Made by a program: the position numbers and the translations under genes. From the NCBI GenBank assembly GCA_038998335.1, contig JAVZHQ010000001.1, forward strand, positions 448,001 to 512,000: a DNA stretch of 64,000 nucleotides. Reading direction: 5' to 3'. How positions within the stretch are numbered: position 1 is the first letter of the stretch; the number at the start of each line of letters is the position of its first letter. Positions 2 through 56,833 of the stretch are shown here, piece after piece. The notes beneath the pieces were generated by a model. That model was not told the DNA's origin. It ran no database searches and saw only the letters and a program-made list of their open reading frames with translations. The stretch comes from Candidatus Aenigmatarchaeota archaeon. GTDB taxonomy: Archaea; Aenigmatarchaeota; Aenigmatarchaeia; CG10238-14; SCSR01.

Positions 2-952
2 TCAAATTGTTTGCAAGATTGTCCCTGTCCAGGCTCGCCAGGATGCTGCGGAAGCTCTTGCGGCTGTGGAGCAGGAGAAGTTTGTGAAAATGATGTTTGT
101 GTAACTCCAACTCCCCCTCCCTCTGGTGGAGGACCAACACCTTGTGATCCAAGAAGAGATATAAGTTGTTGTATTCAAACATACGGCCAATGTTGCGATT
201 GTGCAGGTCTAGGTTATTCAAACTGTTATATAGTTCCTTTTAACACTATCTATAAAGATTGTAAAGATCAGTGCATGCATGTTTGCCCTGGAGGTTGTAC
301 ACAATTTACCGATTCTTCAAAATGTTTAAACGTAGGCTGTAAATGGTATAATAATGCTTGTCATGAAACTTTTACTGGAAGCTGTTCAGAGTTAACTGAT
401 TATGAAAGCTGCACTAATGTTGGTTGTAAGTGGTGTGAAGGAATTTGCAAGGATGAATGTAAATTAGACTGGAACTTAACTATTTCCAAGTATCTAGAGA
501 CTTTTGTCAATACTCCTATTAACGCTATTGTTGAGATTAAAAATATAGGAGATAAAAGTGTAACAAACGTAAAAGTAAATATTCTCAATGTTTCTTCTGA
601 TATAGAATACCAAGTTTCTCCAAGCTCTTATTCAAGAATTTCTCCTGGTGAAACAAAAAGTTTTGTTATAACTCTTAACCCAAAGAAAGTGGGAAATTAT
701 GAGATTAGAATTAATATAACTTCAAACGAAGTTTTTCATTTTACTGAAATTAATTTGATAGCAAATGAACCACCTTCTTTCCATCCCGAACTTTTAACCA
801 TGATTATTTTATTATGGATTATTGCTGGCTTAACAATAATGCTTACTTTCGTTTCCTACAAGCTTTATATGAGAAGAAAAATGAAAAAAATAAAAGTTGT
901 AGAAAAACCTAAGGAAGAACATAGGGAAGAAGAGGCTGAATACTTAGAGTAA
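2..952 (+). CDS. Cys-rich cell-surface protein with CARDB/Ig-like domain and C-terminal TM anchor (5'-truncated by window edge)
   Basis: Frame open from position 2 (SNCLQDCPC...). Many Cys motifs, an Ig-like segment (VEIKNIGDKSVTNVKV...ISPGETKSF), then a hydrophobic helix and a basic/acidic tail. Confidence 0.75.
   Translation, partial: SNCLQDCPCPGSPGCCGSSCGCGAGEVCENDVCVTPTPPPSGGGPTPCDPRRDISCCIQTYGQCCDCAGLGYSNCYIVPFNTIYKDCKDQCMHVCPGGCTQFTDSSKCLNVGCKWYNNACHETFTGSCSELTDYESCTNVGCKWCEGICKDECKLDWNLTISKYLETFVNTPINAIVEIKNIGDKSVTNVKVNILNVSSDIEYQVSPSSYSRISPGETKSFVITLNPKKVGNYEIRINITSNEVFHFTEINLIANEPPSFHPELLTMIILLWIIAGLTIMLTFVSYKLYMRRKMKKIKVVEKPKEEHREEEAEYLE
296..448 (+). repeat. Two tandem Cys-rich peptide repeats CxxxTDxxxCxNVGCKWxxxxC
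   Basis: CTQFTDSSKCLNVGCKWYNNAC and CSELTDYESCTNVGCKWCEGIC in the first ORF. Confidence 0.7.
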
Positions 953-56695: not shown

Positions 56696-56833
56696 CGCCG
56701 GGGCTGGGATTTGAACCCAGAAGGGGCAAAGCCCCAGTAGGTTTCTCAGAATTCAAGTATCATCATTATTCAGATACCTCAGAGTTCCTCATTCACTCGA
56801 GCCTACCGCGTTACCTTGTTCCGCCACCCCGGC
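56696..56833 (-). tRNA. tRNA-Ser(CGA) with a 53-nt intron at 37/38
   Basis: Acceptor stem GCCGGGG/CCCCGGC with discriminator G; anticodon stem GTAGG/CCTAC; long variable arm GGGGC-TTT-GCCCC; T arm CTGGG-TTCAAAT-CCCAG; canonical BHB geometry (one G-T pair in the 4-bp helix); CCA not encoded. Confidence 0.95.
56743..56795 (-). ncRNA. tRNA intron with box C/D sRNA architecture
   Basis: TGA-ATGAGGA(C)-12 nt-CTGA(D')-ATA-ATGATGA(C')-10 nt-CTGA(D)-GAA. Confidence 0.7.

Follow-up and report, generated by a model that had tools for sequence, protein, structure and literature searches.

An intron of an archaeal tRNA-Ser(CGA) gene as a probable box C/D methylation-guide RNA aimed beside the catalytic centre of 23S rRNA

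We analysed a stretch of 64,000 nucleotides (hereafter the window) from the genome of a Candidatus Aenigmatarchaeota archaeon (assembly GCA_038998335.1, contig JAVZHQ010000001.1, positions 448,001 to 512,000), in which a tRNA-Ser(CGA) gene on the minus strand carries an intron of 53 nucleotides (nt). The analysis suggests that this intron is a box C/D methylation-guide small RNA (sRNA) that uses the tRNA gene as promoter and processing cassette, a reading to which we give a probability of roughly three in four. Its guide would most likely direct sugar methylation beside the catalytic centre of 23S rRNA. The observations that carry this reading are the anatomy of the intron, its uniqueness in the genome, its conservation across the order, the complementarity and covariation of guide and target, and the presence of the genes for the required proteins.

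The gene and its intron are organised as follows, in window positions.

56696 to 56833, minus strand: tRNA-Ser(CGA) gene, 138 nt with its intron, with a long variable arm (Rfam tRNA, ARAGORN and fold).
56796 to 56833, minus strand: 5' exon, 38 nt, ending in the anticodon loop CUCGAG (sequence and ARAGORN).
56743 to 56795, minus strand: intron of the bulge-helix-bulge (BHB) type, 53 nt, at the canonical 37/38 position; the candidate box C/D sRNA, "family A".
56786 to 56792, minus strand: C box ATGAGGA, with U5 changed to G (sequence).
56774 to 56785, minus strand: D' guide ACUCUGAGGUAU, 12 nt, antisense to 23S rRNA 5'-UACCUCGGGG-3' of the same genome (C1:415345-415354).
56770 to 56773, minus strand: D' box CUGA (sequence).
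56767 to 56769, minus strand: loop of the putative C'/D' kink-loop (K-loop), 3 nt, ATA (sequence).
56760 to 56766, minus strand: C' box AUGAUGA (sequence).
56750 to 56759, minus strand: D spacer UACUUGAAUU, 10 nt, variable in close relatives and with no credible target.
56746 to 56749, minus strand: D box CUGA (sequence).
56696 to 56742, minus strand: 3' exon, 47 nt (sequence and ARAGORN).

The intron thus reads UGA-AUGAGGA-ACUCUGAGGUAU-CUGA-AUA-AUGAUGA-UACUUGAAUU-CUGA-GAA, in the order C, 12 nt, D', 3 nt, C', 10 nt, D. An earlier reading of the same letters, made without database searches (the sequence-only reading), had proposed this 53-nt string at 56743-56795 and this parse, with a one-mismatch C box and a perfect C' box; string, coordinates and parse all match the sequence exactly. 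The single deviation of the C box from RUGAUGA (U5 to G) retains the kink-turn (K-turn) dinucleotides G3A4 and G6A7, and the stretch from D' through the loop to C' (CUGA-AUA-AUGAUGA) has perfect K-loop boxes. The Rfam tRNA model scores 42 bits (gathering score 29) over 56696-56833 of the minus strand; its anticodon loop takes up an insert of 57 nt. ARAGORN in intron mode, an intron finder of the sort that the sequence-only reading had proposed, returns tRNA-Ser(cga), i(37,53), a 53-nt intron. ARAGORN without intron mode returned no tRNA in the window, and Rfam at gathering thresholds returned no match over the whole window. Over its full length the intron is matched by several archaeal C/D models of Rfam at sub-threshold scores, the best being sR12 (RF01147), with 25.2 bits against a gathering score of 38 and E=0.003 in a 551-nt search; snoPyro_CD (RF00095) reaches 22.5 bits against 45. 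The C/D families of Rfam are species-specific guide families, so a sub-threshold score bears on membership of those families and not of the class.

The rarity of this layout was assessed over the whole genome (1,009,365 bp in 9 contigs, 33% GC, 90.4% complete; labelled G000 below) by searching both strands with the regular expression C-(10-14)-D'-(2-9)-C'-(10-14)-D. With at most one mismatch the only match is the tRNA-Ser(CGA) intron, and the C/D box search suggested by the sequence-only reading hence returns it as the best full C/D layout in 1.0 Mb. With at most two mismatches a second match appears, the 59-nt intron of tRNA-Ser(UGA). As a control, ten second-order Markov genomes gave no genome with a match (0/10) at one mismatch or fewer and one match in total at two or fewer. 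Relaxing the expression to the box variants seen in the lineage yielded three sites in the genome, namely the two tRNA-Ser introns and one AT-rich site, against three matches in total in the ten random genomes.

Conservation was followed through 118 genomes of the order, whose record titles read Aenigmatarchaeota. A whole-gene BLAST run on 41 genomes (G000 and 40 relatives) recovered a full-length intron-bearing tRNA-Ser(CGA) in 11 genomes belonging to four families (G000, G001, G002, G004, G012, G015, G025, G031, G037, G028 and G033), with identities down to 72-75%. Aligning orthologous introns had been suggested as a test of the sequence-only reading, and the boxes and the D' guide are indeed kept where the exons have diverged to that level. 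For wider retrieval, a pattern composed of the 3'-most 6-7 bases of the D' guide, the D' box, the loop and the C' box was used; it matches exactly once per genome in 29 of the 118 genomes, while the reversed pattern gave three matches in two genomes. Outside the order, 4 of 253 genomes of the phylum match, counted as pattern matches only. In 28 of the 29 matches D' is preceded by a C box at a distance of 12-13 nt, and C' is followed, 9-12 nt on, by an NNGA box. The remaining match, in G019, lacks a C box, lies in no tRNA and was left out of the alignment as a probable chance match, so that the counts below refer to 28 homologues.

ARAGORN placed 27 of the 29 matches inside a long-arm tRNA gene, labelled Ser(cga) in 22 cases, Ser(tga) in one and Leu or Ala in four; from the CUCGAG found 5' of the C box we infer that these four are Ser(CGA) genes with mis-set intron borders. 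The hosts are accordingly read as tRNA-Ser(CGA) in 26 genomes, tRNA-Ser(UGA) in one (G006) and a free-standing BHB cassette in one (G005). The last lies in a congener of G000, at the following position.

L043 (G005:C1:33450-33911), positions 197 to 266, reverse strand: stand-alone BHB cassette of 70 nt that holds the same sRNA, without a tRNA body.

The BHB of this cassette is perfect (CCGAG/CUCGG, CUCA/UGAG, bulges AGA and AGA, inner helix GAAU/AUUC). Downstream of it, at a distance of 49 nt, is a tRNA-Ser(CGA) gene without the sRNA; the sole intron of this gene, of 12 nt, is in the anticodon stem. The cassette looks like what remains of an anticodon arm or, alternatively, like a portable BHB unit. 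Since the sRNA occurs outside a tRNA in G005 and in a UGA host in G006, the conserved unit is the RNA and not its tRNA host.

Among the 28 homologues the C box, which was outside the search pattern, is AUGAAGA in 14, AUGAUGA in 5, AUGAUAA in 5, AUGAGGA in 2, GUGAAGA in 1 and GUGAUAA in 1, with a mean pairwise identity of 0.85. The D' box is CTGA in 27; as the D' and C' boxes were part of the retrieval pattern, their invariance is no independent evidence. The C'/D' loop has 3 nt in 22 homologues, and the D' spacer has 12 nt in 24 and 13 nt in 4. The D spacer is more variable, both in length (12 nt in 16, 10 nt in 8, 9 nt in 3 and 11 nt in 1) and in sequence, its first nine bases having a mean pairwise identity of 0.35.

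The D' guide of G000 forms a 10-bp run with 23S rRNA 5'-(C)UACCUCGGGG(A)-3', made of 8 Watson-Crick and 2 G.U pairs. This target lies directly 5' of GGGGAUAA, a sequence of the peptidyl-transferase ring, on a strand that we take to be helix 74, at the edge of the ring of the peptidyl-transferase centre (PTC). Numbering was anchored on Escherichia coli K-12 rrlH, where GGGGAUAACAGGC begins at 2444. The duplex then covers E. coli 2438-2447, and its N+5 nucleotide is C2441 (gene position 2735, C1:415348), so that the N+5 rule predicts a 2'-O-methyl on the C at E. coli 2441. The 23S site was readable in 55 of the 118 genomes, and guide and target are both known in 13. In all 13 the D' guide pairs with its own 23S rRNA over 9-11 pairs (in G015 only after a 33-nt insert was removed by eye), and in all 13 the N+5 pair, G-C in G000, is of the Watson-Crick type. 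Pairing of the D' guide with its own pre-tRNA was also considered and rejected, the best duplex having 6 bp and lying within the intron.

Positions 8-12 of the D' guide, which were unconstrained by the pattern, include a run (positions 8-11) that varies between C and U opposite the target GGGG: at position 8, U (21 homologues) outnumbers A (4) and C (3), position 9 is C in 27/28, position 10 is C or U in 28/28, and position 11 is C in 22/28. Moreover, the four genomes of genus g24 share a compensatory change, in which target n6 has gone from U to C and guide position 6 from A to G; G104, of the same family, retains A:U at this position.

The 23S rRNA gene itself (C1:412614-415875) is 3262 nt long, against 2987 positions in the model. 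Its similarity to the relatives breaks off 27 nt beyond GGGGAUAA, suggestive of an insert or intron. A comparison drawing on loci L050-L073 placed inserts of relatives directly after GGGGAUAA (G012 and G037), within the region (G019) and, with 33 nt, in the middle of the sRNA target (G015). These genomes have GGGGAUAAUGGGC where E. coli has GGGGAUAACAGGC, with different bases at the positions equivalent to E. coli 2452-2453.

The sequence-only reading had taken the intron for a functional guide and had proposed that both of its guides be searched against rRNA and tRNA of the host. This expectation is supported for the D' guide, with its 23S site in 13 of 13 genomes and one compensatory change, but not for the D spacer, for which the search gave no credible target in 16S or 23S rRNA of G000 (1821 of 2000 shuffled spacers do as well). 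The best match of the D spacer in the 23S locus, a 10-bp run with 4 G.U pairs, lies 3' of the 23S gene and was rejected. In the genus of G000 and its neighbours the spacer has 10 nt and drifts (UACUUGAAUU, UACUUAAAUU, UACUUUAAUU and UGUUGGGCUU). In other clades the D guide has 12 nt, is conserved within the clade and matches domain V of 23S rRNA: UACGUCGAUGUU, shared by four g28 genomes, forms a duplex of 9 Watson-Crick pairs with ACAUCGACG in G037, with n5 of the site corresponding approximately to E. coli U2479, and A(C/G)GCUCUUGAU(U/G), found in G015, G025, G031, G006 and, as a slight variant, G063, makes 10-11 pairs with AUCAAGGGCG in G015, G025 and G006, about 240 nt upstream of the D' site. 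The 10-nt D spacer is probably no longer a guide in the genus of G000, where its role would be that of a spacer which also supplies one strand of the BHB inner helix.

The machinery that such a guide would need is encoded in the genome, with all matches above the Pfam cut-offs: fibrillarin (281.9 bits), Nop5 (230.3 bits) and L7Ae (109.3 bits) for the core, the EndA domain of the splicing endonuclease (95.1 bits), and the RtcB ligase (547.2 bits). The genes for Nop5 and fibrillarin are neighbours (open reading frames 405-1478 and 1483-2151 of L001). The sequence-only reading had staked itself on a genome with fibrillarin and Nop5, and both are there, together with L7Ae. The RtcB match (C1:120751-122073) has two TAA codons inside the matched stretch, and its open frame is listed as 494 amino acids; an intein or other insertion, a split gene or an artefact could account for these codons.

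Within the pre-tRNA, the sequence can be read as a BHB with the anticodon stem GUAGG/CCUAC, the central helix CUCG (nt 32-35)/UGAG, two bulges of 3 nt (AGU, with the exon-intron border after AG, and AAA, with the border after AA) and the inner helix GAAU/AUUC; central helix, bulges and inner helix are those that the sequence-only reading had drawn. The minimum-free-energy (MFE) fold of the pre-tRNA is a cloverleaf (z = -4.06) that contains the anticodon stem, a CUC/GAG helix and the AAA bulge; the inner helix, which is weak, is missing from it. In the BHB, the anticodon-loop CUCG is paired with the UGA of the D box and the G that follows it (56745-56748). The AAU with which the C box begins likewise serves as a BHB strand, and the 3' AUU of the D spacer together with the C of the D box forms the inner-helix strand opposite GAAU. 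Because the D box UGA and the C box AAU are BHB strands, the BHB and K-turn folds are mutually exclusive, and the constant AAUU at the 3' end of the D spacer is explained by the requirement for the inner helix. Exclusive folds would give a simple order, with splicing first and assembly of the ribonucleoprotein (RNP) after.

We therefore propose the following course, starting from transcription supplied by the tRNA gene. The pre-tRNA would first fold as a BHB, with the D box and part of the C box sequestered; EndA would excise the 53-mer, and RtcB would join the exons and probably circularise the intron. The freed RNA would then refold into a C/D K-turn and a C'/D' K-loop (if it is circular, D-GAAUGA-C would make a second K-loop) and bind L7Ae, Nop5 and fibrillarin. 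In this RNP, pairing of the D' guide with UACCUCGGGG, 5' of GGGGAUAA, would place a 2'-O-methyl at the equivalent of E. coli C2441.

Public sequence data were consulted for traces of these steps. Among 22 listed runs containing the region, one is true RNA-seq on record (X10, share 0.19); X10, X9, X14 and X1 were compared, all as Logan contigs. In X10, one 269-nt contig of depth 4 spans the unspliced gene and its upstream flank, and shows neither splicing nor accumulation. The contigs of the four runs hold no spliced or circular joint for the gene, and such contigs are uninformative on RNA ends and levels. A joint that seemed to skip 77 nt was rejected, as it carries 36 other letters and comes from a different tRNA-Ser with a short intron.

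Several observations weigh against a guide function. All C/D models of Rfam stay below their gathering scores on the intron, the C box departs from RUGAUGA, and the D spacer has 10 nt instead of 12. Across the order the D box varies, with only its GA constant (CAGA 12, CUGA 8, AAGA 5, CGGA 2 and GAGA 1), and this GA is constrained by the BHB helix as well. The target match is not significant in G000 alone: when guides were shuffled and scored for 8 Watson-Crick pairs in a 10-bp run anywhere in 16S or 23S rRNA, 322 of 2000 shuffled D' guides reached it (the corresponding counts for the other guides of the two tRNA-Ser introns of G000 were 1821 for D in the CGA gene, and 188 for D' and 1244 for D in the UGA gene). 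As these single-genome statistics are weak, the case for the target rests on the comparative evidence, and that evidence has its own weak points. Guide positions 1-7 were in the retrieval pattern, which makes their invariance partly circular; four of the 28 homologues have A at position 8, a mismatch or bulge opposite G (the target of these four is known only for G025); and the covariation is one event in one genus.

A first alternative is that the intron is a structural element only, whose K-turn and K-loop bind L7Ae and shape or stabilise the pre-tRNA or the intron for splicing, the "guides" being spacers. The shorter tRNA introns of the genome, described below, also carry a single K-loop-like motif each, and the short D spacer without a target and the non-significant target score of G000 fit this view. 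So does the pairing of the two spacers, about which the sequence-only reading had warned: in G000 they form 5 in-register pairs beyond the K-loop. That hairpin exists but is not conserved, since an in-register stem of at least 5 bp occurs in only 5 of the 28 homologues and 13 of the 28 have 0-1 bp. The isolated intron is not more stable than shuffled sequences either (z = -0.96, with 25 of 200 shuffles at least as stable), and the spacer-spacer hairpin is not what selection keeps. A purely structural role would also leave unexplained why the D' spacer sequence is conserved in four families while the D spacer and loops drift, why guide positions 8-11, which face G, change almost only between C and U, why one change tracks the 23S target, and why the RNA persists outside a tRNA in G005. 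Finally, with the D box paired in the BHB, a K-turn cannot assist that fold. We consider this alternative improbable.

No better placed is the possibility that the RNA acts as an rRNA-folding chaperone, holding the 23S strand by the PTC ring during assembly or during removal of rRNA introns, with methylation absent or incidental. The target region is crowded with insertions among these genomes, and the two guides of other clades both fall on domain V, about 40-240 nt apart, as might be expected of a chaperone. Against it speak the complete methylation machinery of the genome, the canonical 12-nt D' spacer in 24/28 homologues and the Watson-Crick N+5 pair in 13/13 genomes. The observations as a whole do not tell chaperoning and methylation apart, and the two may coexist.

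A third alternative, marginally less probable again, concerns the D guide, which in this genus may have been retargeted to the tRNA T-loop to direct Cm56 in place of a lost Trm56; a guide-directed Cm56 reportedly replaces Trm56 in Pyrobaculum. The guide UACUUGAAUU places N+5 on C56 of GGUUCAAAUCC, with 7 pairs, 2 of them G.U, on most tRNAs by hand count and 9 pairs on two tRNAs with GGUUCAAGUCC or GGUUCGAGUCC. Trm56 was not found in the 90.4% complete G000 nor in any of the six genomes of the genus (0/6), and it was found in only 3 of the 69 remaining genomes of the family, whereas family f4 has it in 21 of 23. The duplex is short and comes from a 10-nt spacer, below the canonical 12; the shuffle control, in which 1821 of 2000 guides did as well, was run against rRNA and excluded tRNAs. 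More tellingly, A or U at guide position 5 removes the G-C56 pair in G004, G005, G059 and G062, and the spacers of G002 and G012 are unrelated, so that the C56 pair is not conserved within the genus. Over the families as a whole, Trm56 (PF01994) was counted in 21/23 genomes of f4, 9/19 of f5 and 3/69 of f1; these metagenome-assembled genomes are 56-97% complete, and single absences are no proof.

A chance resemblance in an AT-rich intron, to which the 33% GC of the genome and the sub-threshold Rfam scores might point, is effectively refuted by the conservation of the layout and its spacing throughout the order. No second site of the genome has the layout at one mismatch or fewer, and neither does any of the random genomes.

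We thus retain the reading of the tRNA-Ser(CGA) intron as a methylation guide, and turn to the only other good match of the layout in the genome.

C1:281225-281370, minus strand: tRNA-Ser(UGA) with a 59-nt intron, the candidate second C/D sRNA, "family B" (found with the regular expression).

Family B reads AUGAUAA-AAUGGCUUGACU-CUGA-CUA-AUGAUGA-GUCGGAGGUGAG-UUGA. A pattern for its D' side matches 39 of the 118 genomes of the order, in 40 places, with no control match. Thirty of these 40 loci were examined, and the D guide, which the pattern did not constrain, is GGAGGUGA in 30/30; both putative guides of family B are conserved in the 30 loci. The D box is UUGA in 28 of the 30 and GUGA in G025, and no UUGA was parsed in G073. 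The C box has A at position 6, which turns the G6-C1 pair into A-U where the D box is UUGA. One family-B guide makes 9 Watson-Crick pairs with 16S rRNA CGUCAAGCCA, with E. coli A1408 at N+5, and the other makes 8 Watson-Crick pairs with the 3'-terminal UCACCUCC of 16S rRNA; neither match is significant in one genome (188 of 2000 shuffles for D' and 1244 for D). Eight of the 30 loci lie in a tRNA according to ARAGORN (6 Ser(tga) and 2 labelled Thr with a CCUUGAG context), and the 22 others are free-standing, with inverted repeats at their flanks. Free-standing copies often share a contig with the 23S target site, at a distance of 4-8 kb (for example G010 C1:159136 and 164324, G021 C4:584 and 5006, G073 C20:6945 and 11985), and may lie within or beside the rRNA operon, co-transcribed with the target.

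With these two introns, the genome seems to hold only two such full C/D sRNAs rather than dozens. This suggests that in a 1-Mb genome the fibrillarin machinery is retained for the sake of only about two rRNA guides. If true, this would be a natural minimal system in which to ask which ribose methylations a ribosome needs and why tRNA introns persist in reduced genomes.

The shorter tRNA introns of G000 (31-46 nt) each have one K-loop-like motif, made of NNGA, 3-6 A-rich nt and (A)GAUGA. Seven introns match the corresponding regular expression, against about 0.05 expected at the genome-wide rate, among them those of the following tRNAs.

C1 569471-569588: tRNA-Leu(CAA).
C1 c[785187-785307]: tRNA-Leu(UAA).
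C1 663523-663634: tRNA-Trp.
C1 405024-405132: tRNA with anticodon CAU.
C1 371540-371646: tRNA-Cys.
C1 c[556995-557113]: a further tRNA with a K-loop intron.

By hand alignment, the Leu(CAA), Leu(UAA), Trp and CAU introns pair over 6 bp with nt 32-37 of the anticodon loop and have a D'-like box 2 nt further on, so the N+5 rule points at wobble nucleotide 34; the Cys intron forms a 9-bp duplex with N+5 on C39. The Leu(CAA) layout recurs in 17 of the 118 genomes, from 14 genera, with no control match. These short introns may be minimal half-mer guides that act in cis.

A broader reading would join these observations, and we hold it as a tentative one that we would sooner doubt than assert: tRNA introns would be a general platform for the expression and processing of methylation guides in this order. 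It supposes that the rRNA guide repertoire has shrunk to about two sRNAs; that one of these aims beside the peptidyl-transferase ring and the other at 16S A1408 and the anti-Shine-Dalgarno end; that both reside in tRNA-Ser introns or portable BHB cassettes and are matured by the splicing endonuclease; and that the introns of tRNA-Leu, Trp, Met(CAU) and Cys are one-K-loop half-mers acting on nt 34 or 39 of the tRNA that carries them, which they methylate before splicing. If it were true, the persistence of tRNA introns in reduced genomes would be tied to guide-RNA function.

Two tRNA introns with C/D features are known from other archaea. Passages of PMC7994747 describe a C/D sRNA carried by the pre-tRNA-Trp intron of euryarchaea (Haloferax volcanii, and sR50 of Pyrococcus), which guides Cm34 and Um39 of its own pre-tRNA (citing Clouet d'Orval 2001), and passages of PMC3491384 describe a stable 66-nt intron with C/D elements in the elongator tRNA-Met of Nanoarchaeum equitans, for which a potential guide role was suggested. 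As far as these passages go, the background given by the sequence-only reading, which had named both cases, is borne out. A literature search covering sources other than subscription journals and supplementary tables found no C/D sRNA in a tRNA-Ser intron or in Aenigmatarchaeota, in line with its remark that no tRNA-Ser example was known; the sole mention of tRNA-Ser found, in passages of PMC7994747, is of an sRNA gene downstream of tRNA-Ser in Ignicoccus.

The present intron resembles that of tRNA-Trp as a candidate full C/D and C'/D' guide in a BHB intron of the anticodon loop, from which the tRNA splicing enzymes would release it. It differs in its host, a tRNA-Ser of the Aenigmatarchaeota (DPANN), in its length of 53 nt and in having the D box in common with the central helix of the BHB. 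Where the tRNA-Trp intron targets its own transcript, the conserved predicted target is here in 23S rRNA, and self-complementarity of the D' guide is at most 6 bp. With the N. equitans intron it shares a DPANN host of reduced genome and an intron with C and D elements, one box being off consensus; the passages on that intron name no target, whereas the present case is built on conservation in 29 genomes and on covariation of guide and target.

Compared with free-standing archaeal C/D sRNAs such as sR12 and snoPyro_CD, the intron has a similar size of about 50 nt, the same box order, a 12-nt D' spacer, a 3-nt loop and a target near the PTC; unlike them, it lacks a terminal stem and a separate promoter, and its ends would be made by BHB cleavage. 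Circular tRNA introns and circular C/D sRNAs have been described (passages of PMC7994747). Domain V close to the PTC is a hotspot of predicted archaeal methylation, and the passages of PMC4644070 and PMC7994747 on this point name helices 90-93 and not the 2441 site; passages of PMC4644070 also report a predicted methylation at the A1408 equivalent in Sulfolobus acidocaldarius and N. equitans. A target in rRNA, reached in trans, and a tiny surrounding repertoire would be unusual for this kind of intron. tRNA-Ser would thus be the third host, after tRNA-Trp, whose guide acts on its own tRNA, and the suspected case of Nanoarchaeum tRNA-Met, and what it would add is a host in a different DPANN phylum and a conserved predicted trans target in 23S rRNA, beside the catalytic centre.

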